Assembly: GCA_016873775.1 (NCBI GenBank)
Contig: VGWC01000001.1
Span: 10,141 to 74,140, forward strand
From: Ignavibacteria bacterium
GTDB taxonomy: Bacteria; Bacteroidota; Ignavibacteria; UBA10030; F1-140-MAGs086
Direction of reading: 5' to 3'
Length of the DNA: 64,000 nucleotides
Part shown: piece after piece, positions 951-50,337 of the stretch
Layout: each line of letters begins with the position of its first letter
Position numbering within the stretch: the first letter of the stretch is position 1
Notes under the pieces: generated by a model
What the model was told of the DNA's origin: nothing
The model's input: only the letters and a program-made list of their open reading frames with translations
The model's database searches: none
Translations under genes and position numbers: made by a program

Positions 951-955
951 TAATA

Positions 956-1983
956 TGATACAACGATATTTGTACTTTGCTGTTTTACTTGTTGTTACGT
1001 TTGTTATTTCCGTTGCAATGAAAGAACCGGCATCGGGTTTAAATAATGATGACAATTCACAGTATATAAAATTTTCGCATCAGAAACATTTCAGCGAACA
1101 AAATATTGCGTGCGCCGATTGCCACACCATTGCGAAAGAAAGCAAACGTTCTTCCGATAAGTTAATGGCGAATCACGAGAGTTGCACTACTTGTCACGAA
1201 GAACAGATTTCCAATGATTGCGCATTTTGTCATACCAATCCCGAAGAGATTGTTCCGATGCAACCGAAGGAACGTGAAATAATTTTTTCCCACGAACTTC
1301 ATTTTACAAAAAACAGTATTGTGTGCGAAACGTGTCACGAAGGTTTTGAAACAGTGATGTATGCCTCGGGTTCGAATATGCCAGCAATGACATTATGTAT
1401 GAATTGCCACGAGAAGAAAAACGTTTCAAGAAATTGCGAATCGTGTCATACGGATTTTGTGAGTTTGTTTCCGGAAAATCACCGCATCGCAGATTTCAAA
1501 AAAGAGCATAAAAAATATTCTCGAGTCGGCGAAGGTGATGCGCTGTGCGCAACGTGTCACGCGGAAAACTTTTGCGAAGACTGTCACGCAGGAACGGAAT
1601 TGAAATCGTTCGGAACAAAACGCGATTTGATGACGGAACCTTCATCGAAAACCTCTGTGAACGATTCTCCCAAACAATTACGATTGCAAAATGTTCACGA
1701 GTTGAATTATCGTTTTTCGCATGGAATTGACGCGCGTTCACGATTTCTTGATTGTTCTTCGTGTCACGACCAAAAAACATTCTGCAACGAATGCCACGAC
1801 GCGGGGGGTAACGTTACGCTGCAAAAAATTAAACCGGAGTCGCATTTTTCTGCAGGGTTTGCCACGCTTCCGGGCACAGATGGCGGAAGACATAAAGAAC
1901 TTGCGCGCCGCGATATTGAAAGTTGTATGAGTTGCCATGATGTTGACGGCAAAGAACCACTTTGTGCAATGTGTCATCAATAA
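956..1983 (+). CDS. Multihaem cytochrome c with 12 CXXCH motifs and an N-terminal signal-anchor.
   Basis: Twelve canonical CXXCH haem-binding motifs counted in the translation: CADCH, CTTCH, CAFCH, CETCH, CMNCH, CESCH, CATCH, CEDCH, CSSCH, CNECH, CMSCH, CAMCH. Hydrophobic N-terminus MIQRYLYFAVLLVVTFVI. The ORF track starts at 916; the ATG at 956 just before the hydrophobic segment is the more likely start. Confidence 0.85.
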
Positions 1984-1995
1984 GGAGTTAAAAAA

Positions 1996-3108: not shown

Positions 3109-3134
3109 ACTCTTGAAACAGAAATTTTCCAAAA

Positions 3135-3172
3135 GCAAAGGAAGAAAATACGTTTGCTTTTTTTCATTACTG
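3135..3172 (+). terminator. Possible intrinsic terminator after the 9-haem cytochrome gene.
   Basis: 'aagcaaa–13 nt–tttgctt' stem followed by TTTTT. Confidence 0.3.
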
Positions 3173-3390
3173 AAATCAAACGCTTTTTTCTATTGCACGA
3201 ATGAGAATATAAATTCGTAATAATACTTTATCTGTTGAACGCATCTTATATTTCTTGATTATTCAGTGAAGAATTATGAAATTTTACGGTACTTTTTTTG
3301 TTTTTTTTCTTGATGCACACTTTGAACTTGGCATAAAATTTGTTTTGACAATTGAATATCTGATTATTTAAATTATAAACTTCTATACAA

Positions 3391-4803: not shown

Positions 4804-4850
4804 ACAATTCTGTTTCGCAGATTTTAAAAAAAATTCAACTATTTGTTTTT

Positions 4851-6155
4851 ATGAAACGTACTATCTTCATCATTTCTGTTGTTATTCTTGCAATTTTTTC
4901 CAGTTGTAGAAAAGACGATAACACACAACAACCGCCGCCGTCCGAATATAAACTCACAGATTTTGAATCCTCGCAATCGTGTTCGACGTGTCATCCACAA
5001 TACTACGAAGAATGGAAAGGTTCGATGCATCGCTATGCAACGAACGACCCGATTTGGATGCTTGCGGCAAATTCACTTCAACAAAGCACGAACGGTAAAT
5101 TGAAAGACTGGTGTTTTCAATGTCATTCACCGATAGCATTTCTTACAAAAACATCGCCAAAAATGATTGATATTTCAAAATTACCGGAAATCGTTCGCGA
5201 AGGAGTGAACTGCGATGTATGTCATACATTGTTACCGCCTCATAAAACCACTGACCAAAATATCTTTTACAACATCAAACCTGGGAAAACAAAATATTCT
5301 ACGCTCAAAAATCCTGTTCCTGCCGGCGCGCACGAAAACGGTTACGACGCATCCCAAGACCGTTCAGAATCGTGTCGTCAATGTCACGATTTGATAGTGA
5401 ATGGTATCCCGTTGGAAATGACATTTACCGAATGGCAAAATAGTCAATGGGCAATGTCGGCGGAATTTGATTGTCAAGATTGTCATATGAAAACCTATAC
5501 AGGTCGCGCAGCAACCGGAGGACCTATTCGTGAAAATTTACATCGTCACGATTTCATCGGCGTAGATGTTGCAATCACCGATTTTCCGAATAAGCCGCAA
5601 CAACGTGCCGCTATTGATTCGCTTTTAAAAAATGCTGCGACGCTTACTGCAAATATTCCTTCTTCTGCCAATCTCAATGATTCCATAAACATCGGAGTTA
5701 CTATTATCAATGACAAAACGGGACATAATTTGCCGACGTCGGTTTTTTTCAACAGACAAATGTGGATAGAAGTAACAGTTTCCAAAGGAAGCGACACGGT
5801 ATATCGTTCCGGTCATTTCGATGCAAACGGCGATTTGATGGATAACAACAGTGCAATTGCTCCAAATGCAGATAAAGATTTGGTCATTTTCAACGGTTCG
5901 CTGTATAAAGATGGACACCCGTCGAATGCATTCGAACTTGATTCTGTTGTGAATAAAACCATTCCTCCGTTTGCTTGGCATACGGCAAATTACAAGTTCA
6001 AAGTTCTCTCTTCCGGAATATGGAATGTAAAAACACGCTTGCTCTTTCGTCCGTTTGGACCGTATTTATTTCGGAGTTTAGGCGCAAGTCAATATGTGTC
6101 CGAACTTCCTGTGTTCGAGATGAACTCGTACGAAACGAATATCAACGTTCAATAA
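4851..6155 (+). CDS. Pentahaem cytochrome c lipoprotein.
   Basis: Signal peptide plus lipobox (IFSSC). Five CXXCH motifs: CSTCH, CFQCH, CDVCH, CRQCH, CQDCH. Confidence 0.8.
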   Translation: MKRTIFIISVVILAIFSSCRKDDNTQQPPPSEYKLTDFESSQSCSTCHPQYYEEWKGSMHRYATNDPIWMLAANSLQQSTNGKLKDWCFQCHSPIAFLTKTSPKMIDISKLPEIVREGVNCDVCHTLLPPHKTTDQNIFYNIKPGKTKYSTLKNPVPAGAHENGYDASQDRSESCRQCHDLIVNGIPLEMTFTEWQNSQWAMSAEFDCQDCHMKTYTGRAATGGPIRENLHRHDFIGVDVAITDFPNKPQQRAAIDSLLKNAATLTANIPSSANLNDSINIGVTIINDKTGHNLPTSVFFNRQMWIEVTVSKGSDTVYRSGHFDANGDLMDNNSAIAPNADKDLVIFNGSLYKDGHPSNAFELDSVVNKTIPPFAWHTANYKFKVLSSGIWNVKTRLLFRPFGPYLFRSLGASQYVSELPVFEMNSYETNINVQ

Positions 6156-6293: not shown

Positions 6294-6746
6294 ATGTCAA
6301 CAATATTTAGTAAATCTTGTGAATATGCACTGCAATCAATGCTGTATATTGCACGCAAAGCAAAAAATCAGCCGATTTTACTCCGCGATATTTCCACTGA
6401 ACTCAACATTCCTTATCATTTTCTCAGTAAAGTATTGCAAAATCTTGTGCGCGACGGTTTAGTCGTTTCGCATAGAGGAATCAACGGCGGATTTTTCTTA
6501 GGGCGCTCTGCGGAAGAAATAACGCTGTTCGATATTATTTGCGCTATTGAAGGAAAAACATTTTTCGATAATTGCATTCTCGGTTTTCCCAAATGCAGCG
6601 ACGAGTATCCATGTCCTGCTCATTTTCAATGGAAGGATGCAAAGTCCATTCTTCTCGAGGTCTTTCAGAGAAAAACCGTTGCAGAATTATCCATAGCACT
6701 TGACCCGAAACTGGAACTTGTTCACAAACTTTCAGGTATGAAGTAG
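6294..6746 (+). CDS. Rrf2-family transcriptional regulator (IscR/NsrR-like) with a 3-Cys cluster.
   Basis: N-terminal wHTH 'SCEYALQSMLYIARK…PILLRDISTELNIPYHFLSKVLQNLVRDGLVVSHRGINGGFFL' is typical Rrf2. Cys cluster CILGFPKCSDEYPC. Confidence 0.85.
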   Translation: MSTIFSKSCEYALQSMLYIARKAKNQPILLRDISTELNIPYHFLSKVLQNLVRDGLVVSHRGINGGFFLGRSAEEITLFDIICAIEGKTFFDNCILGFPKCSDEYPCPAHFQWKDAKSILLEVFQRKTVAELSIALDPKLELVHKLSGMK

Positions 6747-10777: not shown

Positions 10778-11387
10778 TATTTTTTCGATGCAACAGCGAA
10801 CAGACATAACAGGGATTATACTTGCCGGCGGAAAAAGTTTGCGAATGGGTAGTGACAAAGCGCTTCTTTCCTTAGGAAATAGAACGTTATTGCAATGTGT
10901 TGCAGATGCGATGAAACAGGTTTTTCACAATGTGATAATTATTTCTGACAATGGTGAGTGTTATACGGAATTACAATTGCCCGTATTTCCCGATGTGTAT
11001 AAATGTTGCGGACCGTTAGGGGGAATTCATTCGGCGTTTGCTCATTCGTCGTCGGAAAATATTTTTGTTGTATCGTGCGATTTGCCATACATTACTCCCG
11101 AAGTAATTCAATACATCACGAATATTCATTCAAACGGTGATGTCATCATTGTATCACAAGGAAGAATTATTCAACCACTTTGCGGATTATATCAACGAAC
11201 TTGTGTTGCTACGCTCGAACAATGTCTTTTCAAGAGCGAATTTTCTGTGCTGAGATTCTTGCGAAAACTCAATACGTATGTGCTTTCGCTTAATACTCTA
11301 TTCCCTTCTGTAGCAGAACATACGCTAATGAATATCAACACTCCGATAGAATACCGCAGGAGTGTAAATTATTGGTATGGGAATTAA
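10767..11387 (+). CDS. mobA: Molybdenum cofactor guanylyltransferase MobA.
   Basis: 'ITGIILAGGKSLRMGSDKALL' nucleotidyltransferase motif, the expected size, and position directly downstream of moaA. Confidence 0.8.
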   Translation: MADNIFSMQQRTDITGIILAGGKSLRMGSDKALLSLGNRTLLQCVADAMKQVFHNVIIISDNGECYTELQLPVFPDVYKCCGPLGGIHSAFAHSSSENIFVVSCDLPYITPEVIQYITNIHSNGDVIIVSQGRIIQPLCGLYQRTCVATLEQCLFKSEFSVLRFLRKLNTYVLSLNTLFPSVAEHTLMNINTPIEYRRSVNYWYGN

Positions 11388-11467
11388 TAAAAATTTTTTT
11401 TTCATCAATTCGCGAGTATTTTTCTCTCGCTTCTCTTTTACATTTTCAACAACAAGAATTAAATAAT

Positions 11468-11941
11468 ATGTTTCAATTAAGCCGCAGCGGTGAATATGCA
11501 ATTCAAACAATGATAAATTTAGTATCGCAGAAAGATGAATTATCAACAATCGCTCAAATCGTCCAGGAAGAAAGAATTCCGGAGTCATTTGTTCGGAAAA
11601 TCATTCAGCAATTGATTCGCGGAAAACTTCTGAAATCGAAACGTGGAATTCGTGGAGGAATTGCATTGGCAAAACCCCCCTCTTCAATAACCGTATACGA
11701 TATTATTGAAATTACTGAAGGTCCTATCTATTTTAACAAATGCATCATCGGACCACGCGAATGTTCCATAACGTCTTGGTGTTCCGTGCATCCTGTTTGG
11801 CAAGAAGCGCAAAATAAATTTGTAGAAGTTCTGCAAAAAAAAACGATTGAAGATTTATCAAACGAGCGAAAGGTATTGTTTCGGGATTTTACAACGAAAG
11901 TAAATATGAATAAGGAAAAAAGCGACGCGCTTCAAGAATAA
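11468..11941 (+). CDS. Rrf2-family transcriptional regulator, second paralog.
   Basis: 'MFQLSRSGEYAIQTMINL…GIRGGIALAKPP…ITVYDIIEITEG' wHTH plus Cys cluster CIIGPRECSITSWC. The internal ATG at 11468 gives the canonical Rrf2 N-terminus; the track ORF starts at 11372. Confidence 0.8.
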   Translation: MFQLSRSGEYAIQTMINLVSQKDELSTIAQIVQEERIPESFVRKIIQQLIRGKLLKSKRGIRGGIALAKPPSSITVYDIIEITEGPIYFNKCIIGPRECSITSWCSVHPVWQEAQNKFVEVLQKKTIEDLSNERKVLFRDFTTKVNMNKEKSDALQE

Positions 11942-12099
11942 CCTTCAAGGTTTTTTTGATTTTAAAGGCGGTGTTTCACATGAGTTGATGGCTTTCTTAC
12001 AAGACCGTAAACGGTCTTGCTGGACGAAAAAAGAATCATCAATGATTCTTTGGTTTTATTCCGATTTATCGGATTTTTTTGTTTCAGCATAACCATGAA

Positions 12100-12811: not shown

Positions 12812-13243
12812 ATGAGTCTTCTCTTTAGCCGCCAATGTGAATATGCATTACAAGCCATTCTTTTTCTTGCTACAAAACCGCCAAAAGAAATGGTACCAGC
12901 AAAAGAATTAGCAGAAAAATTGAATATCCCGTATCATTTTTTGGCAAAAATATTTCAAGATTTATCCAGAAAAGGAATATTGGTTTCCTTAAAAGGACCA
13001 ACCGGTGGGTTCACTCTTGGAAAAGCCGCCAAAGAAATTACGCTTTTTCATATTATTGAGGCAATTGATGGAGCAAATTTCATGGAAAATTGCGTTTTAG
13101 GATTTTCTCAATGTGGGGGAGAGAATCCTTGTGCTGTGCATAATAAGTGGGGAGATTTGCGCGATGAAATACATAGGATGCTCACATCAAAAAATATTAT
13201 GCAGTTGTCGAAAGAAATGAAGAAACCTGTATTTCAAGAATAA
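12812..13243 (+). CDS. Rrf2-family transcriptional regulator, third paralog. Closest to the 6294 copy.
   Basis: 'RQCEYALQAILFLATK…ELAEKLNIPYHFLAKIFQDLSRKGILVSLKGPTGGFTL' plus Cys cluster CVLGFSQCGGENPC. Confidence 0.85.
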   Translation: MSLLFSRQCEYALQAILFLATKPPKEMVPAKELAEKLNIPYHFLAKIFQDLSRKGILVSLKGPTGGFTLGKAAKEITLFHIIEAIDGANFMENCVLGFSQCGGENPCAVHNKWGDLRDEIHRMLTSKNIMQLSKEMKKPVFQE

Positions 13244-14647: not shown

Positions 14648-15451
14648 ATGACAGAAACGAAAACCATTGAAGATTTTTATGCGCAACTTGCTTCCGATTA
14701 CAATACATTCACAGAACCAAAAAAACGATGGTCGCGCGAGATAGACATTTTTCGTTCACTCGTCCAACGCTATAATATTACATCAGCCATTGATGCAGGA
14801 TGCGGAACGGGATTTCATTCGTTGGTACTTTCGCAACTTGGAGTGAATGTTATCGCCGCAGATGTTTCTCAAGAAATGCTGCGCATTGCAGAAAACCACG
14901 CGAAGCAATACAAAGTCTCGATAACGTTTATCAAATCTTCATTTCAACAACTTTCGCAAACAATATCCACTCGTGTTGATGCAGTATGTTGCTTAGGAAA
15001 TTCCTTCCCCCATTGTCTAACGGAAAAAGAACAACAACATGCGTTGCAGAATTTTATTTCTCTCTTAAAACCGAATGGCGTACTCATCCTTCACTTATTG
15101 AATTATGACCGCATTCTTGCAAAAAATGAGCGCGTGCAAAACGTGAAAAAATTGAACGGAAAAATATTTGTGCGTTTCTACGACTTTCTTTCTTCCACTG
15201 TACGATTCAATGTTTTAATACTAAAAAAAAACGCAGGCAAAATAATTTCTTCGCTTTCTTCTGTTGAATTATATCCTATCAAAAAAAAAGAAATTCATTC
15301 CTTGCTTTCCGATAGTTCAACTTCCTCCGGCGAAAAATTTTCCGAAATACAATTCTACGGCGGACTTTCACTTGAAAATTATTCCGAATCCGCATCGAAG
15401 GATTTAGTTGTTATTGCCCAAAAACAGCGCGCCATCGAAAACGTTTTATAA
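14648..15451 (+). CDS. Class I SAM-dependent methyltransferase.
   Basis: Motif I '[12 protein letters not shown]' and post-I '[11 protein letters not shown]'. Confidence 0.8.
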
Positions 15452-16537
15452 CGCAATTCTTCGGTACTGAAAATACGCCGCACACGCGCCTTCACTGGAA
15501 ACCATCGGCGCACCAAGCGGATGTTCCGGCGTGCATAATGTTCCGAATACTGAACATTCCTTCGGTTTTTTAATACCTTGCAAAACTAATCCTGCGATGC
15601 AATGTTCACTTTCTTGCACAACAATATTTTCGAGTTCAAATATTTTTTCTGCGTCGAACATTTCATATTCTTTTTTCAATCCTAATCCACTGGAAGGAAT
15701 TTCACCAATGCCGCGCCACTTGCGATGAACAATTTCAAAAACTTCGCGAACTAATTCCTGCGCCGGAATATTTCCTGTTCTTCTCACAGAACGCGCATAT
15801 TGATTTTCCACTTCCGCGCGGCGTTCTTCCAATTGCTTAATGCACAAATAAATTCCTTGAAGAATATCAAGCGGTTCAAATCCCGTTACAACAATTGGAA
15901 CGTGATATTTTTTTGCAAGTGGAATATATTCTTCAAATCCCATCACCGTGCATACGTGTCCCGCCGCAAGAAATCCCTGAACCGTATTCTGCGACGATGA
16001 TAAAATTGCTTCCATCGCAGGAGGAACGAGCACGTGCGAAACCAGCATTGAAAAGTTAGCAACATTCTTCTTTTTCGCGTCAAACACTGCCATCGCATTT
16101 GCGGGAGCGGTTGTTTCAAACCCTACAGCAAAAAAAACTATGTACTGTGCAGGATTTTCCATTGCAATTTTTACAGCATCCATTGGCGAATACACAATGC
16201 GTACATCACCGCCATTCGCTTTCACGGAAAATAAATCCATTTTTTTTCCGGGAACACGCAGCATATCGCCGAAGGAACAAAAGATGACATCGTTTCGCGA
16301 TGCGATGGTGATTGCTTTTTCTATCAATTCAACGGGAGTAACGCATACGGGACAACCGGGACCATGAACGAGAGAAATTTTTTTCGGAAGCAATTCATCA
16401 ATACCGAATTTCACAATCGCGTGTGTTTGACCACCGCAAATTTCCATCAGCGACCATGCGCGCGTTGTTATGTCAAAAATTTTTTGAGAAAATTGTTTCG
16501 CGCATTTTGCGTCGCGGTATTCGTCAATGTATTTCAT
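15446..16537 (-). CDS. hypD: [NiFe]-hydrogenase maturation factor HypD.
   Basis: 'MKYIDEYRD…[18 protein letters not shown]…[13 protein letters not shown]' are conserved HypD motifs. Confidence 0.9.
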
Positions 16538-16788
16538 ATATCTCGTTCATTCAGTTCTTTCAACTCATCTATTTCTTTCAAATATTCGAACACGCGGTTT
16601 GCTTCGTCTTTATCTACTTTGCTGATAGCAAATCCTACGTGAACAATCACAAAATCATCAACCGTTGCATCAGGAACATACGAAAGATTTACTTCTTTTA
16701 TTATTCCGCTGAAATTTACTTTTCCTGTTCGTTGCAACGGTTCGTCGTTCGTGATGCTTTCAATTTTTCCTGGAATTGCGAGACACAT
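16534..16788 (-). CDS. hypC: Hydrogenase maturation factor HypC.
   Basis: N-terminal MCLAIPGKI, size 84 aa, and a start that overlaps the hypD stop. Confidence 0.85.
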
Positions 16789-16808
16789 TTTCGATTTCAG
16801 ATTTCAGA

Positions 16809-19094
16809 TTATTGATTATTCATTGCATAATACATTTGACCGAGCGAAATTCCTCCGTCGTTTGTCGGAATTTTTTGATGCCAATATGGTTCGAAATGTT
16901 CTTCTTGCAAACGATGGATTGCTCGTTCCAATAAAATTGTATTTTGAAAACATCCGCCGCTTAAAACGATTCTCTGTTCGTCGAATCGTTTTGCAAGTTC
17001 AACAATTATCTCTACGAGTGTGTTATGAAATTTTGAAGCAATCATTCCAACGGGAATATTCCTATTCACATCGTCAAGAACAGAAAGAATGATTTGCGAC
17101 CAATCAATAATGATGTGTGATTTGGTATTTGCTGTGAGCGTTTCAACGTTATAGTATTCAACGCAATGCAATGCACAATCAGCAAGACATTCTAATTCCA
17201 TTGCGGCTTGTCCTTCAAAATTTGCGCGTTGTCGAATTCCAAGTATTGATGCAACCGCATCGAATAATCTCCCAACGCTTGTTGTTATCGGCGAGTGTAT
17301 TTTTCGCAAAAGCATATTCTTCAAAAGTTCTTTCTCTATTTCTGTGAACGATGCGACGGAAGAAATTTCCTTCATTGAAAAAACTTTTTCACCGAACAAT
17401 TCTGCCAATACTCCGATTGCTGTTCTTCGCGGTTCTTTTATCGCTTGCTCTCCTCCAGGAAGGCGAAATTGTTTGAATGTTGCAACTCGTGCAAAACTCT
17501 TTTCATTGGCGCATAAAAATTCTCCTCCCCAAATTGTTTCATCAGTTCCGAAACCAGTTCCGTCCCACGCTACGCCGAGAACATTTCCGCGCAAATGATG
17601 TTCTGCCATACACGAAAGAATATGCGCGTAATGATGCTGAATTTTTACTATGTTCGAGTTTTTTTTCACCACAAATTTCGTTGAAAAATAATCGGGATGC
17701 AAATCACAAATATACGTTGTCGGCGATGTTTCGTACAATCTTTGAAAACTTTCAATGACGTTCGCAAATGCTTTTGTTGCCTGCAACGTTTCTAAATCGC
17801 CGATGTGTTGACTGATGAAAATGTTATGCTTCTTTGAAATTGCTACGGTATTTTTCAAATGCGCACCAACAGAAAGAAAAGAATCCTCGCATTGGGTTTC
17901 GATGAATATTGGAAGCGGAGCAAATCCGCGCGAACGTCGAATGAGCATTTCTTTTCCCGCAACAACGCGCACAACGGAATCGTCAACATAGCGAATGATG
18001 GGGCGATTATGTACAAGAAAAACATCGGCAATATTGTTCAAGCGCAACAGCGCTTCATGTTCATCAATGCAAATCGGTTCATCGGAAATATTTCCGCTTG
18101 TTGCAACAACGGGAAATTCTATCTCCCTCATCAAAAGATGATGAAGCGGCGTGTAAGGAAGCATAACACCGAGATACGGATTGTTCGGAGCAACTGCTTT
18201 TGAAATTGTTGATTGCAGTTTGTTGAACGCTACACGCTTCAACAAAACAATCGGTGATTGATGCGACGTAAGAATTTTTTCTTCATATTCAGAAACGACA
18301 CATTCATTTTTTATTTCTTCGAGCGTAGGAAACATCAGCGCCAATGGTTTTTCTTCACGATGTTTTCGTTTTCGTAAACGCTGAACTGCATCGTCATTTC
18401 TTGCGTCAACAATGAGATGAAATCCTCCGAGTCCTTTCAGTGCAACTATTTTTCCATTTCGGATTTCTTCTGCAGTTTGAACAATCGCATCGTGGTGAGA
18501 AGCGACGAGTGTTCCGTTTTCATTCCATACTTCCGTATGCGGTCCACAACGTGCGCACGCATTGGGTTGCGCATGAAATCTTCTGTCGAGAGGATTATGG
18601 TATTCGTTTGCACATTCTCCGCACATCGTAAAAAGTTTCATCGTTGTATTGCTTCTGTCGTACGGAAGCGATTCCATAATAGTAAATCGAGGACCGCAAT
18701 TTGTGCAATTCGTAAAAGGATACAAAAATCTTCTGTTCGTTTCATCGAACATTTCTTTCAGACAATCGTTGCACGTTGCAATATCGGGAAGCATTAGCGC
18801 AGTTTTTTCGTTATCTGTTTCGCTTGAAAGAATTTGAAAATCTGTGAAATTGTTCGGCGCTACAATTGTTGATGAAATATGTTGAATTATTGAAAGCGGT
18901 GGTTTTTCTTCGACAAGTCGCTTCAAGAATAATTCCAACGTTCCACGTGCTTGTTCTGCTTCGATAAGAACACCTTGCGAAGAATTTTTTACCCATCCTT
19001 TGATGTGCATTTCGTTTGCAAGTCGAAAAACGAACGGACGAAAGCCCACTCCTTGCACTGCGCCGTTGATTTCAATATGAATTCGTTGCTTCAT
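16809..19094 (-). CDS. hypF: Carbamoyltransferase HypF.
   Basis: Acylphosphatase-like N-terminus, two CxxC…CxxC zinc-finger pairs (CTNCGPR, CGECANE, CARCGP), YrdC-like and Kae1-like regions, 761 aa. Confidence 0.9.
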   Translation of the reverse strand: MKQRIHIEINGAVQGVGFRPFVFRLANEMHIKGWVKNSSQGVLIEAEQARGTLELFLKRLVEEKPPLSIIQHISSTIVAPNNFTDFQILSSETDNEKTALMLPDIATCNDCLKEMFDETNRRFLYPFTNCTNCGPRFTIMESLPYDRSNTTMKLFTMCGECANEYHNPLDRRFHAQPNACARCGPHTEVWNENGTLVASHHDAIVQTAEEIRNGKIVALKGLGGFHLIVDARNDDAVQRLRKRKHREEKPLALMFPTLEEIKNECVVSEYEEKILTSHQSPIVLLKRVAFNKLQSTISKAVAPNNPYLGVMLPYTPLHHLLMREIEFPVVATSGNISDEPICIDEHEALLRLNNIADVFLVHNRPIIRYVDDSVVRVVAGKEMLIRRSRGFAPLPIFIETQCEDSFLSVGAHLKNTVAISKKHNIFISQHIGDLETLQATKAFANVIESFQRLYETSPTTYICDLHPDYFSTKFVVKKNSNIVKIQHHYAHILSCMAEHHLRGNVLGVAWDGTGFGTDETIWGGEFLCANEKSFARVATFKQFRLPGGEQAIKEPRRTAIGVLAELFGEKVFSMKEISSVASFTEIEKELLKNMLLRKIHSPITTSVGRLFDAVASILGIRQRANFEGQAAMELECLADCALHCVEYYNVETLTANTKSHIIIDWSQIILSVLDDVNRNIPVGMIASKFHNTLVEIIVELAKRFDEQRIVLSGGCFQNTILLERAIHRLQEEHFEPYWHQKIPTNDGGISLGQMYYAMNNQ

Positions 19095-19744
19095 TTCTTA
19101 ACAATCTTTGAACGAAGCCATTCGCACCATTGGGAAATTCCCTTGTTGTTCATGCACGAAATTTCAAACACCAACAGTCTCGGATTGATGCGCAACGCAT
19201 TGTTTTTCAGCAATGTAATATCGAATTGCAAATGCGGAAGCAAATCCGTTTTGTTGATGAGCAAAACCGCTGCGGTACGAAATATTGCAGGATATTTCAA
19301 AGGTTTGTCTTCGCCTTCGGTTACACTGACGACGACGACTTTGAACGTTTCTCCTAAATCGTACGCCGCAGGACAAACAAGATTTCCGACATGTTCGATG
19401 ATAAGCAATTCTGTCGTTTCAAAAGAAATATTTTTCAGCGCATCCTGAATCAATTTCGCATCAAGATGGCACGCGCCGTTGGTGACGATTTGCACAACGG
19501 GAATATGGTGTTTTGCAATTCGTTGCGCATCGAAATCGGTTTGTACATCTCCTTCTATTACACTCACGGAAATACTTCCTTTCCAATATTCCAATGACTT
19601 TTCAAGAATACTTGTTTTTCCCGAACCCGGAGAACTGATGATGTTGATGACAAAAATGTTGTTTGCCTCAAACAACTTGCGGTTTTGTTGTGCAAGTTCA
19701 TCATTTTTTTCAAGAATTTTTCGTTCAATGGTAATAACACTCAT
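19091..19744 (-). CDS. hypB: Hydrogenase nickel-incorporation GTPase HypB.
   Basis: P-loop 'SSPGSGKTS' and the HypB-type GTPase layout. Overlaps the hypF start by 4 nt. Confidence 0.9.
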   Translation of the reverse strand: MSVITIERKILEKNDELAQQNRKLFEANNIFVINIISSPGSGKTSILEKSLEYWKGSISVSVIEGDVQTDFDAQRIAKHHIPVVQIVTNGACHLDAKLIQDALKNISFETTELLIIEHVGNLVCPAAYDLGETFKVVVVSVTEGEDKPLKYPAIFRTAAVLLINKTDLLPHLQFDITLLKNNALRINPRLLVFEISCMNNKGISQWCEWLRSKIVKK

Positions 19745-20103
19745 ACGTTTTTTTTCGTTTGTTCAAACATTTCGATTTCTACAATGTTCATTTCCGTCCC
19801 CGAGAGAATTTCACAATTCGTGCTTGCGCAGAAAGAGCAAACATTCATCCCGAATTCATTGGAAGATTTTTTTTTACACACATTGCAATACACTTCAAAC
19901 GGAATTTTTTGAATGACGAGGTTCGCGTTGTTCAATGGTGTATTATTCACGATGACGGAAAAAGAAAACGCTAATGATTCTGCGGCAACTCCCGAACATT
20001 CGCCAACAACAGTTTTCACATTCGTAACATTATGCAAATCGTTTTCGTGAACGTGTTGATGTATGATTTCTACGATATTCTGTGCAAGCGAAAGTTCGTG
20101 CAT
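19741..20103 (-). CDS. hypA: Hydrogenase nickel-insertion protein HypA.
   Basis: 'MHELSLAQNIVEI' N-terminus with a CxxC…CxxC zinc site (CNVCKKK…CSFCAS). The ATG at 20103 is the likely start; the track ORF begins at 20145. Confidence 0.8.
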   Translation of the reverse strand: MHELSLAQNIVEIIHQHVHENDLHNVTNVKTVVGECSGVAAESLAFSFSVIVNNTPLNNANLVIQKIPFEVYCNVCKKKSSNEFGMNVCSFCASTNCEILSGTEMNIVEIEMFEQTKKNV

Positions 20104-20197
20104 ACGTTGTAATGAACAAGAGTTTCTCTCAAAATTTGCGCTCAATAAAAAAATCTTTTAGCAAAGTAAAAAACGTTTCAATGGTCTCTGTAAAAAA

Positions 20198-20567
20198 TTA
20201 TACGGCAAATTGTTCTTTCCATCGTTGTAACACTCGCTCTGCACGTTCAACAAATTGCTGGAGCGCGTTTACAACAGCATCGCTTAATCCTTCGCCAAAG
20301 TTATACGGGTTTTCGACTTTCATCGCAAGCGCGCAAAAATGTTTTGGAAAAGAAAGTTCGAGAACATCCATCATACGCAATGCTTCGGGAATACCAAGAT
20401 GATGCGGAGAGAGCGAAAATATATTTTGAAAATCTTCTTTTGATAGTTCCTGTTGGATATTTTCCGGTAAAAATACTATCGAGAATAAGAACAGCATCGT
20501 ATGCGCTGAGTATTTCAACCAAATCAAATCCTCCGCCGCTAAATTCCACAACTTCCGCTCCCGTCAA
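20198..20567 (-). pseudogene. [NiFe]-hydrogenase maturation endopeptidase (HyaD/HybD/HycI family) remnant. It is frameshifted and lacks its N-terminus.
   Basis: Reading frame A gives 'AEVVEFSGGGFDLVEILSAYDAVLILDSIFTGKYPTG'. Reading frame B gives 'SLSPHHLGIPEALRMMDVLELSFPK…VENPYNFGEGLSDAVVNAL'. Each matches a conserved protease block, but in different frames. An in-frame stop sits immediately 5' of the first block, and no 'LGIGN…DDG' N-terminal block is present. Confidence 0.55.
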
Positions 20568-21185
20568 TTGTTACACTGTTTCCATTACCATCATTACCTT
20601 CACCCGCACTTTTCGCCCAAATATAATCAGTGGTTTGTGCAAAGATACTATTAGAATAAAATACTATCGCGCATAAAAGCGCGAGTGTATTCATAAATAA
20701 GTTTTGATTCAATATTTTTGTAGTGTACATAATATTAGCATTTCGATAATGATGTTAATAAAATAGATTGTTATTTGAAAATTACTCAAGTAAAAACTAC
20801 TTCAAATAAATTTGTCCGTATGTAAAAAAACTCGAAAAGTTTTTCTGTGACACCCTAAAAAAAACTGTGTTAAGTAAAAGTTATTTGTGTATAAATTCAA
20901 AATACAAATATCAAAAAGGGAAAGAAAAAGCGTGGTGGGAAATTTGATGAGGTTAGTAATTACAACTATAAGTATCTCTTTCTATGTATCAGAATGAAGA
21001 TATATTGACTGATGTTATGCAGAGTTGTTAAAATTCTAAAATCTAAACACGAAATTCTCAACAAATCACAATTTCAAAATTTTGAAATTATTTTTGGGAA
21101 TTTGTTTCATAGTAAGAAATTTTGGAATAGTATTTCCATAGTTGTACTCTAAAGAGGTTTGTTTAACATCAGTTATTCAGATGAA

Positions 21186-22031
21186 TTATTTTTCTTTCCA
21201 TTTTCGGACTTTTTTATAATCAATCGCTCGTTTTTCGTTGAATGCAGAAATTCCTTCTTTAATTTCCGCCGCAGAAGTATGAACCGTTAGCCAATCGCGC
21301 AGATGTCCAACAGTAAGCGACCACGAAAAATTTTTCCAGAAATTCAGTTGCTCTTTTGCGTACCGCGAACATTCGGGAAGTTTGTTGAATAACGTTTTCG
21401 CCATTTCCTTCGTTGCGGCATCAAGTTTTTTTCGAGGAACAATTTGATTCACAAGTCCCCAATCGAACGCTTGTTTTGCCGGAATTTCTTCTCCGAGCAA
21501 AATCATTTGACGCGCACGTCGTTCTCCGATAATAAGCGGAAGCCATTGTGTTGCGCCTGCCGCAGGAACACTTCCTCGCGACGTTCCTACGTGCTTGAAA
21601 AAAATATCATTTGCGGCAATTGCTATATCGCAAGACATTTGCAATTCGTTTCCGCCGCCGACTACAATTCCGTTCAAGCGCGCAATTGTTGGCTTTCCGA
21701 TGTTGCGCAATCGTTCAAACGTTTCGAGAAACACTCCCATCCATTTGTAAAAATCATCGGATGCATCGAGAAAATCTTCGTTCCATTCTTTCATATCGGC
21801 TCCGGTGCAAAATGCTTTTGTTCCTGCGCCTGTGAGAATTGCAACGGCAATATTATTATCCCACGCAACATCTTCAAATGCTTCGGAAAGTTCGCGGAGC
21901 ATTTGCAGATTGATGGCATTGTACACTTCTGGACGATTGAGTGTTATCGTAGCAAGCCAATCATTTTTTTCATAGAGGATAGTTTTAAAATGAAATGCGG
22001 TGAATGATTTTCCGGAATATTTTTTTCCCAT
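21186..22031 (-). CDS. Enoyl-CoA hydratase/isomerase (crotonase-fold) family protein, possibly MenB-like.
   Basis: 'ITLNRPEVYNAINLQMLREL…VAILTGAGTKAFCTGADMKEW…ARLNGIVVGGGNELQMSCDIAIA…FDWGLVNQIVP' crotonase signature. Confidence 0.75.
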   Translation of the reverse strand: MGKKYSGKSFTAFHFKTILYEKNDWLATITLNRPEVYNAINLQMLRELSEAFEDVAWDNNIAVAILTGAGTKAFCTGADMKEWNEDFLDASDDFYKWMGVFLETFERLRNIGKPTIARLNGIVVGGGNELQMSCDIAIAANDIFFKHVGTSRGSVPAAGATQWLPLIIGERRARQMILLGEEIPAKQAFDWGLVNQIVPRKKLDAATKEMAKTLFNKLPECSRYAKEQLNFWKNFSWSLTVGHLRDWLTVHTSAAEIKEGISAFNEKRAIDYKKVRKWKEK

Positions 22032-26802: not shown

Positions 26803-29800
26803 ATGATGCCGATGATACAGCGTTCTCTTCTTATAGATCTTCACTATTCAAAAATTCTCTCAAGACTGATTGTTATTTTCTTCATTTTCCCGATAATTGT
26901 TTTAGCACAATCAACTTCGTGGAAAGGAAACGGAACAACTGCTTGGAATACAGCAAGCAACTGGACCAATGGCGTTCCCAATAGCGGTGTTGATGCTATC
27001 ATTGGAGATGCAAATATGGTGGGAACAACGCAACCAACGATAAATACCACTTCCGCTTCGTGCAACAATCTAACTATTGGAAACGAAACAGTGCCTTCCA
27101 CTCTTACAACCGGAAACAACAATTTTTCGGTTTCAGGTAATGTAACGATAGGCGCAAACGGTACACTTGTTCACAGTGCGACAAGCGGAACCCGAATATT
27201 ATCCGTGAGTGGGAACTGGATTCAAACGGGAGCATATACAGCCGCTAATGCAGTTGCTACTGTTTCATTTGAATTACCAGCAACGATGAGCGGTTCCGGT
27301 CCATTTAAAACAGTTGTAACGAATGATTCCATTGCGTTGCTATCCAATATTACAGTTAATACATCGCTGACAATGAATGGAACATTCGAACCAAATTCGT
27401 TTGCTGTTTTGGGAAGTGGTTCGCTGAATTTATACGGAACGTTATACATCAATGCTTCCACGTTCGCAGGAAATATTTCTTTGAGCGGAACGAAAACTCT
27501 GGAACCGTTGAGTATTGTTCACTATAACGCTTCAACAGCAAATCAAACCATTGATAATTCGTTGAGTTATGCAGTATTAAATCTTGCAGGTGGAATGACA
27601 AAAACAGCAGGAGGAAATCTTACCGTTACAGAAGATTTGTATCTCCTTGAAGGAACTCTTAATTTATCAACGTTCACCGCAAATGGCGGAGGAGGAATAT
27701 TGGACATTGCAGAAAATACTTCTCTGAACATCGGCGGAACAAATTCGTTTCCTTCAGGATATGGAAATATTACCATAGATGTTGCAAGTACTGTTGAATA
27801 CAACGGAACGAATCAAACAGTTGCTGCACAAACGTACGGAAATCTCACTTTGAGCAACGCCGGCGCGACGGTTACAAAAACTCTTCCTTCATCTTCAACT
27901 ACTATTGAAGGAAACTTGATTCTAAACAATGGTTCTGGAACTTCACTAACGGCAAACGCAAATAATGCTCTGAATATTTCCGGAAACGTTACAATTGGAA
28001 ACGGTTGCACTCTGAACGGAAGTAATTATTCTCACAATGTTTATGGTAATTGGACTAACAGCGGCACATATAATTCATCAGCAAATGGTGCAGTAACTTT
28101 CAACGGCTCCAATACAACATTGAGCGGGAACGGAACAAATAATTTTTACGATGTGAATTTTTCCGGAAACGGAATTTCCACTTCTTCTTCTACAAATATT
28201 TCCGTCTCAGGAAATTTCACTTCCAATCCAGGCGCATCTTTCACCCATATAAGCGGAGGAGTCGGAACAGTTTCATTAACCGGAACTTCAAAAAGTATCA
28301 GTGGTTCATTGATTAAATTCAATCATTTATCGCTTTCAAGTTCGTATACCACCTCCAGTTCGTTTTCTATCGCAGGAAATTTAACAGTGAACGGTTCATT
28401 TTCTGCTACAAGCGGCGCAGTTACATTTTCCGGAACATCCATTCTTTCAGGAACAGGAACAATCAATTTCTATGATGTAACGGTAAGCGGAACACTTACA
28501 TTAGCTGCGAATACAACGCTTGGGATTGCGGCGACGCTTTCAACTTCTTCGGAAAATTTTAACGCAACTTCCAATACTCCCAACACGGTAAAATTCAACG
28601 GAACAGGAGCGCAAAACATTCCCGCGCTTACAGTTTACAATTTACAATTTGAAGGCGGTGGAACAAAAACCGTAACAGGAAATCTTTCTCTTCACAATGA
28701 TTTTACAATTGGAAATTCCGTGAGTTTCGACGTGGCTTCCTACGCACATTCCATTGCAGGAAGTATTTCCAATTCGGGAACAATGTTAGAAAATACGTCC
28801 ACGATGACAATGACAGGTGCAGGAAAAACAATTTCCGGAAGCGGAGTAACTTCGTTTCATTCGTTCATTATCAGTGTTACGGGAAATATTACTGCAACGC
28901 AAAATTTTAGTATTACAGGTAATTTGACGAATAACGGAACATTTTCCAATTCTGCAAATACCGTTACTTTCAGCGGTTCTGAAAATGCAAATATCAACGG
29001 AACAACTTCGCCGACTTCGTTTAATGCGATAGCAATTTCAAAAATCGGCGGCGCTTCCGTTGCACTGGGAATGAACATTTCCGATTTAAGTTCACTCAAT
29101 ATTTCCAGCGGAATTTTAAAACTTTCATCGTTTTCTGTTTCACAAGCAGGCGGTGGCGGAATACTCACAATCGGAAGCGGAGCAACGTTAACGATTGGCG
29201 GTTCCAATTCCTTTCCAACATTTAATGCGTACAGTATTTCAACTTCCAGCACTGTTGAATATAATGGAAACGGTACGCAAACAATTTCGGCAAAAAATTA
29301 CGGAAATCTAACCAGTAGCAATTCCGGAAATCGTATTCTTGCTTCCAGCGGAATAATCGGTATTGCAAAAGCGTTTGACCCCGGTTTCAATTCGTTCACT
29401 ATTACCGGAAGCACGATAGAATTTAACGGCTCAGGTACTCAAACAATTCCAGCGTTCAATTATAATAATCTCACAAGCACAGGAATCGGGGAACGCGTGT
29501 TTGCTTCCGGCGGAACAATCGGAATTGCAGGTACCTTTACAAAAGGAACAAATTCGTACTCGACAACAAATAGTACAATAGATTTTAATGGAAGTACACA
29601 AGTAATTCCTTCTCTTACGTATAACAATCTTGCAACAAGCGGAAGCGGCACAAAAACTCTTAGTGGAAATGTAACAGTGAACGGAACGCTTTCTCTTACT
29701 TCCGGAAGTTTCGCTGATGGAGGATTTACGGTAACCGCAAACGGCAATGTTGAAAATGACGATGCGCATACCGGTTCAGGAAAAATTTTGCTTTCGGGAG

Positions 29801-32800
29801 GAACTGCAGAACATGAAATTTCCGGCAATGGCCCGTTCACTAATCTCCACGTCAATGATACCAATGGAGTTCTTGCGGCTTCCGATATTACAGTGAATGG
29901 AACGCTTACTCTCTCAAACGGGAATATTACTACAAATACGAATAAAGTTATTATCAATTCGACCGGTTCTGTTTCGCACACAAGTGGGCACGTCATCGGG
30001 AATTTAGAAAAAGCAATTTCAGCAGGAAACTCTTCAAAGACGTTTGAAATTGGAAAGGGTAGCAATTACTTGCCCGTTTCTCTTTCGTTCAATAATGTTT
30101 CAACTTCCGGAAAACTTACTGTTAGCACAACCAACGGCGACCATCCGAATATTGCAACTTCTAATGTTCGTTCCGATAAAAGCGTGAATCGTTTCTGGAG
30201 TTTGGCAAACAACGGAATTGCACTCACTTCGTACGATGCCGTTTTCAATTTTCTTTCTACGGATGTTGATGCAAGCGCAAACACGAATAGTTTTATTGTT
30301 CAAAGTTACGACGGAAGTTCGTGGAATACGCATACTGTTGGAACAAAAACAGGAATGTCAACGCAAATACTTAGCTCAACGTCGTTCAGCGATTTTCAAA
30401 TCGGCGAACAAGTGGATAATCCAGTTCCATCAACAACAAGTATTTCTCCAACAACAAAAAATGTCGGTGATGCGGAATTTACACTTACGGTAAGTGGAAC
30501 AAATTTCATCAATGTTTCCGTCGTACGATTGAACGGTTCTGATAGAGCAACAACATTTATCAACAATTCGCAACTTGAAGCAACAATTCCCGCAAGCGAC
30601 TTGTTGAATCCAGGAAATTACAGCATCACGGTTTTTAACCCGGCGCCTGCAGGTGGAACTTCCAATGCGCAAACGCTAACGATTATAGGCGGTTCAATCA
30701 GTGGTGTGAAATTTAACGATACAAACGGAAACGGCGCAAAAGATAACGGAGAAGCGCTTCTTGCAAATTGGGTAATCAATCTTTCGGGAAAGTCAACTGC
30801 TTCCGATACAACCGATGGAAGCGGCGCATTTTCTTTCAGCAATCTTTCTGCGGGTTCGTACACTATTAGTGAAGAGTCGCAAAACGGATGGATGCAAACG
30901 CTTCCGCTTTTCGGTGGGAATTACAACATCAATGTTGGCGCTTCTACAATCGTTTTTTCCGACTATAATTTCGGAAATTTTCAATTTGGTAGTATGAGCG
31001 GAACCAAATTCAATGATACAGACGGCGATGGAATGAAAGAAGTCGGAGAAGTTGGTTTAGAAAACTGGAAAATAAAAATCTCAGGTCCAATGAATGATTC
31101 TGTATTTACAGATGCGAACGGAAATTATACGTTTTCAAATTTAATTGCCGGAACATATACTGTGAGTGAAATTGTACAAAGCGGATGGGTGCAAACTTTT
31201 CCTTCATTACCGGGGACTCATTCTGTTCTTATCAACAGCGGAACAAATTACACAGGAAAAAATTTTGGAAACTTTCAACTTGGCTCGATTGCCGGCGTGA
31301 AATTCAATGACACCGATGGTGATGGAATAAAAGATGTTGGCGAACCTTTGCTTGAAAACTGGCGCATTCGTCTTTCGGGAGCAAAAACAGATTCGATGCT
31401 TACGAATGCTTTGGGACAATATTCCTTCACGAGTTTAGGTCCCGGAAATTATACAGTCAGTGAAGCAGTGCAAAACGGTTGGTCGCAAACATCTTCACCA
31501 ACGTCGTTTTCCATTACGATGTTGAGCGGCGATGTGAACATTGATAAGGATTTTGGCAATTTTCAACTCGGAACAATTTCAGGAAATGTTTTCAACGATA
31601 TTGATGGCGATGGCGTTCGGGAATTTGGTGAAAGCGGTTTGCAATCGTGGAAAATAAAAATCACTGGTCCTCGCATTGATTCTGTAACAACAGATGCGAA
31701 CGGAAATTATTTGTTCACAAGTTTATCTGCCGGAAATTATTCTTTATCCGAAGTTGTGCAAAGCGGTTATGTGCAAACAACATCACCGACAACGCTTTCC
31801 GTTACAATTACAAGTGGAACTATTTCAACCAACAGCGATTTTGGGAATTTTCATCTTGGTTCCGTAAGTGGAATAAAATTCAACGACGCAAATGGAAACG
31901 GCGCAAAAGATGGCGGCGAAGTTGGATTGCAGAATTTCAGAATAAAAATTTCCGGCGCAATCAATGATTCTGTTCTTACGGATGCCAATGGAAATTATTC
32001 ATTCACAAATTTAAACGTCGGAACGTACACGCTCAGCGAAGTGCAGCAAAACGGATATATTCAAACGATGCCGCCAAATCCCGGTACGTATTCAGTGAAT
32101 ATTCAAAGTGGAACAAATGCAGTGAATAAAGATTTCGGAAACTTTATGCAAGGAGAAATCAGTGGTTTGAAATTCAATGACGTGAATGGAAACGGCGCTC
32201 AAGATGTTGGTGAAAACGGACTTCAAAACTGGAAAATAAAAATTTCCGGTCCTCAAAATGATTCCGTTCTTACTGATGCAAATGGAAATTATTCGTTTGT
32301 GAATTTATCTGCGGGAACATACACCGTGAGCGAAGTATTGCAAAGCGGATGGATGCAAACGTTTCCAACATCTCCTTCAACGTATTCAGTAAATATAAAC
32401 AGCGGAACCAATGCAGCGAATAAAAACTTCGGCAATTTTCAATACGGAAGTGTGAGCGGTGTTGTGTTCACCGATACTGATGGTGACGGAACCAACGATG
32501 CGGGCGAAAACGGTCTCGAAGGATGGCGCGTTCGTTTGTCAGGAACACGCACGGATTCGACGTTGACAAACGCAAACGGAAATTATTCGTTTGGAAATCT
32601 CACTGCGGGAAATTATACGGTGAGCGTTGTAGTACAAAACGGATATGTGCAAACTGTTCCCGTTTCTCCGTCAACATTTTCCATTTCCGTACAAAGTGGA
32701 AGCAGTTTTTCGAATAAAGATTTCGGAGAATTTCAACTTGCAACTATCAGCGGAATGAAATTTAATGACCTCAACGGCAACGGTACAAAAGACGGAAACG

Positions 32801-50305: not shown

Positions 50306-50337
50306 TTTTACTGAACAAATTTTCGGAGGTTCTTTTT

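Follow-up and report, generated by a model that had tools for sequence, protein, structure and literature searches.

Bacterial group 3c [NiFe]-hydrogenases with Hdr-like partners (MvhADG/HdrABC) have been reported, including examples from Ignavibacteriae Ch128a and Caldithrix abyssi (PMC7509429, PMC5317091). Loci of this type carry genes for MvhA, MvhG, MvhD and an HdrA-like protein. Other described systems that resemble parts of the locus presented here are the Hyp system of E. coli and Thermococcus, the HybD/HyaD/HycI maturation endopeptidases (PF01750, TIGR00072; 1CFZ, 2KML, 5IJA), and the SBBP-repeat T9SS cargo proteins (Por_Secre_tail, TIGR04183). A functional endopeptidase of the HybD type has a complete fold of approximately 145-165 amino acids with three metal ligands, and a T9SS cargo protein of the SBBP type has a signal peptide, an SBBP propeller and a C-terminal Por_Secre_tail domain.

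The window analysed here is a 64-kb stretch of a Lake Tanganyika metagenome-assembled genome (MAG), M_DeepCast_65m_m1_282, which has the accession VGWC00000000, is 93.6% complete, carries 2,361 genes on 157 contigs, and is filed as Ignavibacteria (GTDB class UBA10030). It was compared with its closest relative, a sister lineage whose HypF is 76% identical to that of the window (loci L005-L007, L077 and L078), and with an outgroup locus, L008. The scar described below was also compared among six contigs taken from JGI and Logan assemblies of six Lake Tanganyika runs.

Five hyp genes lie on the minus strand in the order hypA, hypB, hypF, hypC and hypD, and Pfam matches, motifs and comparison with the relative all agree with the initial annotation that each is intact. 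The hypA gene (19741..20103) encodes 120 amino acids that cover positions 1-112 of the 112-position PF01155 profile, with an MHE nickel site at residue 1 and a zinc site (CNVC...CSFC) at residue 73. Its true start is the ATG at 20103 rather than the TTG at 20145, given that the length and the MHELSLAQ start are as in the relative and that independent gene calls also give 120 amino acids. HypB (19091..19744; 217 amino acids; PF02492) is 78% identical to the relative's protein over its full length and carries the G3E GTPase motifs SSPGSGKT (P-loop), EHVGNLVCP and NKTD. HypF (16809..19094; 761 amino acids) has Acylphosphatase, two zf-HYPF, YrdC and Kae1-like domains, all five above the Pfam cut-off, as well as four CxxC fingers, and is 100% identical to MBM4165330.1 at NCBI. 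HypC (16534..16788; 84 amino acids; PF01455, 85.5 bits) begins with MCLAIP, including Cys2, and is 88% identical to its counterpart in the relative. Finally, HypD (15446..16537; 363 amino acids; PF01924, 508 bits, profile positions 3-351 of 351) contains both the GPGCPVC and GFETT motifs and is 86.5% identical to the relative's HypD, with a dN/dS of 0.11.

Overlaps of 4 nt had been described throughout this operon. They are present at three of the four junctions (A/B, B/F and C/D), whereas a 20-nt gap lies between hypF and hypC. Relative to the sister lineage, the hyp genes have dN/dS values of 0.08-0.25 and the flanking genes values of 0.05-0.29, at a dS of about 0.7-0.9. Among the six assemblies, the hyp genes differ by one nonsynonymous SNP (hypA) and one synonymous SNP (hypF), a number too small for a test of selection.

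There is no hypE in the window, and hypD ends against a convergent methyltransferase gene (14648-15451) such that the two stop codons overlap by 6 nt. Both features had been noticed initially, and the absence of hypE was then counted as part of a loss. This interpretation does not survive comparison with the relative, whose hypD also ends against a convergent methyltransferase, and in both genomes hypE occupies a separate conserved locus with the arrangement hypE-PAP2-SprA-RuvB. The HypE protein of the window organism (P0125; MBM4166589.1) is intact, ends in PRIC, and scores 495 bits against the TIGR02124 equivalog model (cut-off 251.6). It was found in the same five samples as HypD, and its accession lies 1,259 numbers from that of HypF, within the span of the 2,361-gene MAG. 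On these sequence grounds, we judge that hypE was never part of the hyp operon in this lineage and, because it is intact at a separate conserved locus, that the genome retains the complete six-gene Hyp pathway. As with the Hyp system of E. coli and Thermococcus, it specifies all six proteins, each of full length and bearing its defining motifs, and hypABFCD forms a compact, translationally overlapping operon. It differs in that hypE stands apart rather than after hypD, and that the operon no longer adjoins any hydrogenase.

The arrangement in the sister lineage indicates what once preceded these genes. There, genes for HdrC/B-like proteins, citrate synthase, an HdrA-like protein, MvhD, MvhG (small subunit) and MvhA (large subunit) are followed by an intact gene for a 161-amino-acid protease and then by hypABFCD. 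The best NCBIfam matches of the upstream products are HdrC, HdrB, HdrA2, VhuD, VhuG and VhuA, and the JGI name of the large subunit is 'F420-non-reducing hydrogenase large subunit'. On the 3' side of the relative's hypABFCD are the methyltransferase, Fer4_5 and Rrf2 genes, which are the same neighbours as in the window. The relative therefore carries exactly the module of the described group 3c Mvh/Hdr loci upstream of its protease and hyp genes, including all four of the genes named above, whereas the window is without the whole module and retains only the 3' two-thirds of the protease gene. A tblastn search of the 64-kb window for the relative's upstream hydrogenase and Hdr genes (E below 1e-2) found none, chance Fe-S matches aside, and a six-frame motif scan of the window for NiFe large-subunit, HypE and FeFe signatures returned only chance matches outside the hyp genes. 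Because the relative has this hydrogenase upstream of hypABFCD with matching downstream neighbours, we infer that the window lineage has lost a group 3c (Mvh/Hdr-type) [NiFe]-hydrogenase.

What remains of the maturation endopeptidase gene occupies two frames on the minus strand and lacks the N-terminal block, just as the initial annotation had proposed. The 5' segment (20445..20546) reads EFSGGGFDLVEIL...PTGT and corresponds to the relative's codons 44-77. The 3' segment (20198..20449), in the other frame, runs from ELSKEDFQ... to a stop at the same position as in the relative's gene, and is 72% identical to residues 73-158 of the relative's protein. Between them, the two frames cover the relative's protease gene from codon 43-44 onwards as far as the stop, with tblastn E values of 5.6e-40 for the 3' segment and 8e-16. 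They are separated by a frameshift, previously placed near 20430, that is real and is located at about 20445/20446, where 11 nt have been deleted relative to the L005 DNA (ggaac[aattctcgaat]tatc).

When the frameshift is repaired in silico, the stub covers positions 25-128 of the 130-position PF01750 profile and positions 41-144 of the 145-position TIGR00072 profile, scoring 55 bits on the latter (cut-off 47.45). The metal ligands of HybD are E16, D62 and H93 (numbering from the 1CFZ structure). Like the HybD/HyaD/HycI enzymes, the stub retains the conserved Asp (ILDSIF) and His (SPHH) regions. It differs from them in the missing in-frame start, the 11-nt frameshift and the loss of the first ~43 codons, a stretch aligning with HybD residues 2-40 that includes the GNxxxxD(D/E) block (GNxxxxDD) with the equivalent of E16. 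Because the N-terminal strand and an acidic metal ligand are missing, the stub cannot yield a working protease, and we classify it as a pseudogene that is a homologue by descent. Programmed frameshifting or a split functional protease was also considered and is ruled out, since the N-terminal third is gone altogether.

The lesion is recent. In a codon alignment with the relative, the stub shows a dN/dS of 0.167 and no extra stops. Given that this value (0.17) is the same as those of intact genes, the loss of the hydrogenase is likewise recent.

The sequence becomes homologous to the relative's protease DNA at GAATTT (20546), and nothing upstream of this position aligns. Alignment with the relative places the junction zone between T9SS cargo-derived and protease-derived DNA at 20547..20565 on the minus strand. 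The ORF that spans it, orf63 (20539..20730, minus strand), carries a signal peptide on the same strand as the hyp genes, as first noted. On its own orf63 gives no Pfam match. It does match two Por_Secre_tail proteins of L008 at their N-termini (tblastn E 4e-9 and 8e-6), and the better match has SBBP repeats and a T9SS type A sorting domain. Over ~59 codons it resembles these proteins in its signal peptide and in the WAKSxG...D.G.S..ID.SG repeat, of which it has the first copy, whereas the propeller body and the C-terminal sorting domain are absent. Thus, orf63 is a gene fragment, the truncated 5' end of a gene for a T9SS-secreted beta-propeller protein. It had been regarded as a chimeric ORF, but there is no fused reading frame, as orf63 enters the protease-derived DNA out of frame and meets a stop 3-4 codons past the junction.

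Short-read assemblies can misjoin, and the source is a metagenome-assembled genome, such that the scar could in principle be an assembly chimera or contain a sequencing-error frameshift, with the protease, and perhaps the hydrogenase, truly intact. This explanation is effectively refuted and retains almost no probability. A 1,082-nt stretch that includes both the junction and the 11-nt deletion recurs without gaps in six contigs, drawn from six runs, at 99.7-100% identity, and because six assemblies share it in this form, neither the frameshift nor the junction is a sequencing or assembly error. The loss of 11 nt is also atypical of homopolymer errors. An intact protease ORF, which had been named as a possible outcome of resequencing, appears in none of the six.

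We consider it probable that a deletion removed the group 3c hydrogenase while the hyp genes were kept, and that the Hyp proteins now most likely mature a remaining group 3b enzyme encoded elsewhere. In the ancestor, hypABFCD would have been preceded by the gene for a dedicated maturation endopeptidase and, before that, by the cluster for the endopeptidase's client, a cytoplasmic group 3c (Mvh/Hdr-type) [NiFe]-hydrogenase. A recent deletion, presumably a single event, would then have joined an upstream SBBP-repeat T9SS cargo gene, cut at about codon 59, to the endopeptidase gene at about codon 43. Judged by analogy to the sister lineage, MvhD, MvhG and MvhA would have gone as a minimum, probably together with the HdrA-like gene and further sequence, for a total of roughly 3 to over 10 kb. 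The 11-nt deletion would have further damaged the stub, leaving hypABFCD intact. The relative's locus and the lack of any trace in the window support the original suggestion of a deletion scar in which hydrogenase structural genes were removed and the 5' end of another gene was joined to the protease remnant.

The left flank of the scar is less simply explained. The T9SS gene upstream in the relative encodes a 919-amino-acid protein of the BNR/sortilin type that is not orthologous to orf63, and the next gene upstream is another T9SS gene rather than a crotonase gene. The former is therefore ruled out as the parent of orf63, and a simple collinear deletion is not demonstrable. A scan of genome contigs with HypF alone gave no match, and a scan with a three-sequence alignment found only the 67% relative known already and distant phyla, with nothing closer that could serve for the left breakpoint. 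In L008, the interval between the SBBP T9SS gene and hypA holds no protease or hydrogenase remnant.

Because the left flank is unmatched in the relative, a more complex rearrangement is possible. In one such scenario, an inversion or translocation would have broken the protease and T9SS cargo genes and moved the hydrogenase elsewhere without deleting it. The neighbourhood has indeed been rearranged, since comparison with the relative reveals an inversion of ~29 kb, with the block at about 12.8-41.1 kb inverted relative to an argB-argF-dapA-putA-like block. Set against this history, the 64-kb window holds no hydrogenase or Hdr trace, the relative's large subunit has no non-self match above 83% identity in a search of 5.8 billion proteins, and the published per-MAG table lists no group 3c enzyme for M_DeepCast_65m_m1_282. 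Moreover, the only matches from 'Ignavibacteria bacterium' in the same accession series (MBM41xxxxx) lie outside the span of this MAG. We therefore regard relocation without deletion as very improbable. One 3c-like large subunit labelled 'Ignavibacteria bacterium' (P0307) was examined as a relocated copy and rejected, as it comes from different samples, is accompanied by its own hypAB, and has an accession outside the MAG's span. A rearrangement of this kind predicts a reciprocal junction, in which the protease N-terminus is joined to the C-terminal part of a T9SS protein.

Returning to the deletion, two fates for the hyp genes were initially proposed: that they serve a hydrogenase encoded elsewhere, or that they are on their way to loss. 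No client [NiFe] large subunit is present in the 64-kb window. Hydrogenase genes together with hypE just outside this 64-kb portion of the 86-kb contig, an arrangement also raised at the outset, were not encountered, and no 3c ortholog or 3c-type large subunit attributable to this organism was found. The per-MAG table (PMC8245535, supplementary file 27), by column count and that paper's HMM call, apparently gives M_DeepCast_65m_m1_282 one group 3b hydrogenase and no group 3c, and it gives both 3b and 3c to related UBA10030 MAGs. We favour service to another hydrogenase on the basis of this group 3b entry rather than of sequence, although the cluster may be on its way to loss.

The latter fate would follow if the deleted 3c enzyme had been the sole [NiFe]-hydrogenase, with hypABFCD and hypE intact only because they have not yet had time to decay. 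Because the lesion is recent, with a stub that has the dN/dS of an intact gene and no extra stops, intact hyp genes prove little about selection. The sister lineage's hyp genes are physically attached to its 3c cluster, and in at least one Ignavibacteriae genome described so far 3c is the sole [NiFe] enzyme (PMC7509429). We nevertheless consider such an orphaned state unlikely. Apart from the apparent 3b entry, the hyp genes of L008 stand apart from any hydrogenase, and thus a distant client is normal in this clade. In addition, a second lesion is already present in the stub, whereas none is found in about 4.7 kb of hyp sequence and 1 kb of hypE. By our own estimate, equal neutral rates would give a p of roughly 0.07 for a single lesion in the 0.36-kb stub alongside an unbroken hyp sequence of about 4.7 kb.

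Regions that could now drive hyp expression flank orf63 and the stub. Upstream of orf63, positions 20731..21185 (minus strand) are AT-rich and non-coding as first described, with 25.5% GC compared to 39.3% for the window. This stretch presumably lay upstream of the T9SS cargo gene before the truncation, as its native 5' region, and it could possibly now act as a promoter source for the hyp operon. Beyond it lies an enoyl-CoA hydratase (crotonase) gene (21186..22031; PF00378, 192 bits), which was thought to be convergent and is instead an upstream, co-directional neighbour on the same minus strand as the hyp genes. Between the protease stop and hypA is a 94-nt spacer (20104..20197, minus strand) with one SNP among samples, at 20154. 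The stretch AAAAGATTTTTTATTGA within the spacer is also found in the relative, and the spacer could possibly contain an internal regulatory or promoter element. Searching 19900-21400 against Rfam gave no match. Promoter and terminator scans returned generic sigma-70-like matches and no Bacteroidota-type TAnnTTTG motif, and no hyp promoter is assignable from them.

A more ambitious proposal is that a population of the 65-m oxycline lost the Mvh/Hdr-type enzyme through an adaptive niche shift that became fixed recently, rather than through neutral decay, with the hyp genes placed under the T9SS cargo promoter and the 3b enzyme as sole client. We regard this as doubtful. If true, Hyp expression would have been uncoupled from hydrogenase-operon control.

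The case is one of ordinary gene loss, cleanly documented, and involves no new mechanism or system. It provides a nucleotide-resolution view of hydrogenase loss in an uncultured freshwater lineage in which the shared maturation machinery was kept. In this clade, a hypE gene missing beside hypD is no evidence of decay. Furthermore, this genome would be misread by gene-presence surveys that take hyp genes or a protease match as evidence that a given hydrogenase is present.

The five hyp genes of the minus-strand operon, hypD (15446-16537), hypC (16534-16788), hypF (16809-19094), hypB (19091-19744) and hypA (start ATG at 20103), match their Pfam profiles over the full length and carry the signature motifs, in agreement with the initial annotation that all five are intact. 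Both the closest relative and independent gene calls give HypA the same length, 120 aa. The proposed coupling of these genes by 4-nt overlaps holds at three junctions but not between hypF and hypC, which are 20 nt apart. As had also been stated, hypD abuts a convergent methyltransferase gene (14648-15451), reaching 6 nt into its end. Inside this overlap of the two stops, one sample (contig L003) carries a T>C SNP at 15447 that preserves the hypD stop (TAA to TGA) and changes the last methyltransferase codon from Leu to Ser.

Upstream of hypA, a 94-nt spacer leads to the remnant of a maturation endopeptidase gene that occupies two frames, followed by orf63, an ORF of 63 codons on the minus strand (20539-20730), and a spacer of 25.5% GC (20731-21185). 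The enoyl-CoA hydratase (crotonase) gene beyond it (21186-22031, minus strand), originally described as convergent, lies on the hyp strand and is thus a co-directional upstream neighbour. In the closest relative, whose HypF is 76% identical (P0002), a 161-aa protease gene lies directly upstream of hypA. The alignment of the remnant with this gene starts at codon 43/44 (GAATTT at 20546) and runs on to the equivalent stop position, and a single 11-nt gap at ~20445/20446, ggaac[aattctcgaat]tatc, accounts for the frameshift. When repaired, the remnant scores 55 bits on TIGR00072 (cut-off 47.45), covering profile positions 41-144 of 145. The split into two frames and the loss of the N-terminal block were therefore correctly recognized. 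The absent block aligns with HybD residues 2-40, which in the 1CFZ structure include E16, one of three metal ligands. With this portion missing, the stub cannot encode a working protease.

These lesions are properties of the population rather than errors. Exact-protein look-ups in JGI and Logan assemblies recovered contigs encoding identical HypD, HypF and orf63 proteins in six runs or samples (SRR7985589, SRR7990334, SRR16108672, SRR7053050, IMG 3300020220 and IMG 3300020221). In all six assemblies the 1,082-nt stretch between the hydratase stop and the hypA start is ungapped and 99.7-100% identical, and a Logan contig of 14.5 kb aligns to the window without gaps and with five mismatches; neither the junction nor the frameshift is therefore an error. 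Elsewhere, three independent Logan contigs share an end point at 12023, where the assembly graph, and not biology, is the probable cause of the break. At 12001-12045 lie two neighbouring hairpins, AAGACCGTAAACGGTCTT and AAGAATCATCAATGATTCTT, which are probably terminators, and a T-run at 12073 varies in length in one sample.

By sequence, orf63 is the signal peptide and first repeat of an SBBP-type beta-propeller cargo protein of the type IX secretion system (T9SS), consistent with the view that its start is unrelated to hydrogenase biology. Its matches are to the N-terminal ends of two Por_Secre_tail proteins (E 4e-9 and 8e-6) of the 67% outgroup relative GCA_964358705.1 (L008), and the better-matching protein is recognized as one with SBBP repeats and a T9SS sorting domain. 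The frame enters protease-derived DNA for only three to four codons, out of frame, and then stops. The pattern is one that a single event joining the two genes would produce, and it encodes no chimeric fusion protein.

Gene order in the closest relative, assembled from five loci (L005-L007, L077 and L078), indicates what was removed. It reads T9SS gene, rubrerythrin, HdrC-like, HdrB-like, citrate synthase, a 1,136-aa HdrA-like flavoprotein, MvhD, small subunit, large subunit, protease and hypABFCD, followed, as in the window, by the convergent methyltransferase, a Fer4_5 protein and an Rrf2 regulator. The best NCBIfam matches are HdrC, HdrB, HdrA2, VhuD, VhuG and VhuA, all under the methanogen-tuned cut-offs, and the JGI annotation of the large subunit is ‘F420-non-reducing hydrogenase large subunit’. 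The cluster is of the group 3c Mvh/Hdr type of [NiFe]-hydrogenase previously described in Ignavibacteriae and Caldithrix (PMC7509429, PMC5317091). Searching the 64-kb window by tblastn with each protein of the relative's upstream cluster gave no match beyond the protease remnant, and the proposal of a deletion scar is therefore supported. By analogy with the relative, we estimate that the deletion would have taken at least ~3.3 kb, from MvhD to protease codon 43, with 7-10 kb or more being probable. The T9SS gene upstream in the relative is of the BNR/sortilin type, unrelated to orf63, with no hydratase beyond it, and the left end of the deletion is not recoverable; the collections searched hold no relative closer than that with the 76% identical HypF.

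An inversion further distinguishes the two genomes: the Rrf2-to-SecD block (~12.8-41.1 kb) is reversed with respect to an amino-acid-kinase, OTCase, DHDPS and proline-dehydrogenase block (41494-45925, ~41.5-45.9 kb) that directly adjoins Rrf2 in the relative. This rearrangement (12800-45925 against L005/L077) is separate from the hydrogenase deletion. In the outgroup L008 (6420-18990), the hyp genes are scattered, in the order hypABFC, transketolase, a bAvd-like gene, hypD, an M1 peptidase, an SBBP T9SS cargo gene and hypE, with no hydrogenase or protease near them; directly upstream of hypA lies an SBBP-type T9SS cargo gene that has a terminator. Another Ignavibacteria-like population, from Lake Tanganyika (L086-L088, P0307), carries the same large-subunit family (77% identical), paired together with MvhD with NuoF-like and NuoG-like subunits rather than an HdrA-like protein. 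Citrate synthase is close by here too, and in L088 PHP and HATPase genes lie upstream of one for an Fe_hyd_lg_C protein.

The initial annotation considered hypE to be missing as well, but this was not borne out. The relative's hypD likewise adjoins the methyltransferase gene without hypE, and its absence at this position is therefore the ancestral layout. A search with the L008 HypE found P0125, a 344-aa ‘HypE [Ignavibacteria bacterium]’ at a separate locus, in SRR7985589, SRR16108672, SRR7990334, 3300020220 and 3300020221, all samples with the window hypD or the scar. This protein is MBM4166589.1, 1,259 accessions after HypF (MBM4165330.1) in a MAG of 2,361 genes; its score against the HypE equivalog model is 495 bits, its C-terminus is PRIC, and it shares a hypE-PAP2-SprA-RuvB context with the relative, whose HypE is 87.8% identical. 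Given these samples, accession, score and context, the full set of six Hyp proteins is encoded. The SprA gene adjoining hypE is a single 2,465-aa ORF in Logan contigs (L010 2104-9501) but is split into ORFs of 933 and 1,529 aa in the JGI 3300020221 contig (L009 2357-9754); one of the assemblies probably contains a frameshift or a variant.

Synonymous divergence from the relative is ~0.7-0.9, and dN/dS ranges over 0.08-0.25 in the hyp genes and over 0.05-0.29 in the flanking genes. Over its 117 alignable codons, the stub is 76.9% identical, with dN/dS of 0.167 and no internal stops, and on this basis it has been under purifying selection for almost all of that time and the lesion is recent. Given such a recent lesion, intact hyp genes are not strong evidence for continued use. 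The contrast in additional lesions, one in the 0.36-kb stub and none in ~4.7 kb of hyp genes (p ~0.07 by our own estimate), is only suggestive of selection on the latter, and SNPs among the assemblies were too few to help.

Two outcomes had been envisaged, namely that the Hyp proteins serve a hydrogenase encoded elsewhere or that the genes are orphaned and on their way to loss. Searching with the relative's large subunit returned nothing above 83% except the query itself; two same-series ‘Ignavibacteria bacterium’ entries (MBM4161225.1 and MBM4177118.1) fall outside the accession span of this MAG, and the former comes from other samples and is accompanied by its own hypAB. Nothing thus points to relocation rather than loss of the 3c genes. 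The source MAG, M_DeepCast_65m_m1_282 (VGWC00000000; 93.6% complete, 2.2% contamination, 2.54 Mb, 39.1% GC; supplementary file 22), is from a Lake Tanganyika study and is assigned to GTDB class UBA10030 (PMC8245535). By count of tab-separated columns, the per-MAG table (file 27) gives it one Hydrogenase_Group_3b entry and no 3c, 1, 2, 3d, 4 or FeFe entry, and both 3b and 3c occur in related UBA10030 MAGs (PMC8245535). If the column count is right, this table entry would provisionally fit loss of the 3c enzyme, with a 3b enzyme left as the Hyp client. A hydrogenase elsewhere is accordingly the favoured outcome, by a clear but not overwhelming margin, over orphaned hyp genes.

T9SS cargo genes with Por_Secre_tail are unusually dense in the window (26803-35301, 46572-54239 and 59975-63997), including SdrD_B/CarboxypepD_reg-repeat proteins of 2,832 aa and 1,340 aa (the latter cut by the window edge) and four tandem genes (FG-GAP, BNR, M28 peptidase and M14 carboxypeptidase); a T9SS gene adjoining the hyp locus therefore has little meaning on its own. 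Two cargo ORFs on the same strand (48731-50305 and 50212-52521) overlap by 94 nt as listed, and the GTG start listed for the second probably lies too far upstream. A cluster at 916-6155 consists of three multihaem cytochrome c genes (c7, c554 and MtrC-like domains) with a beta-propeller gene; HemN-like, hemerythrin, MoaA and MobA genes come next, and three paralogous Rrf2-family regulators fall within 7 kb (6294-6746, 11372-11941 and 12812-13243).

All of this is within known biology, comprising a standard Hyp system, a pseudogenized accessory protease and a truncated secreted-protein gene. The value of the locus is as a clean, dated case in which a hydrogenase was lost, and as a caution to surveys of gene presence.
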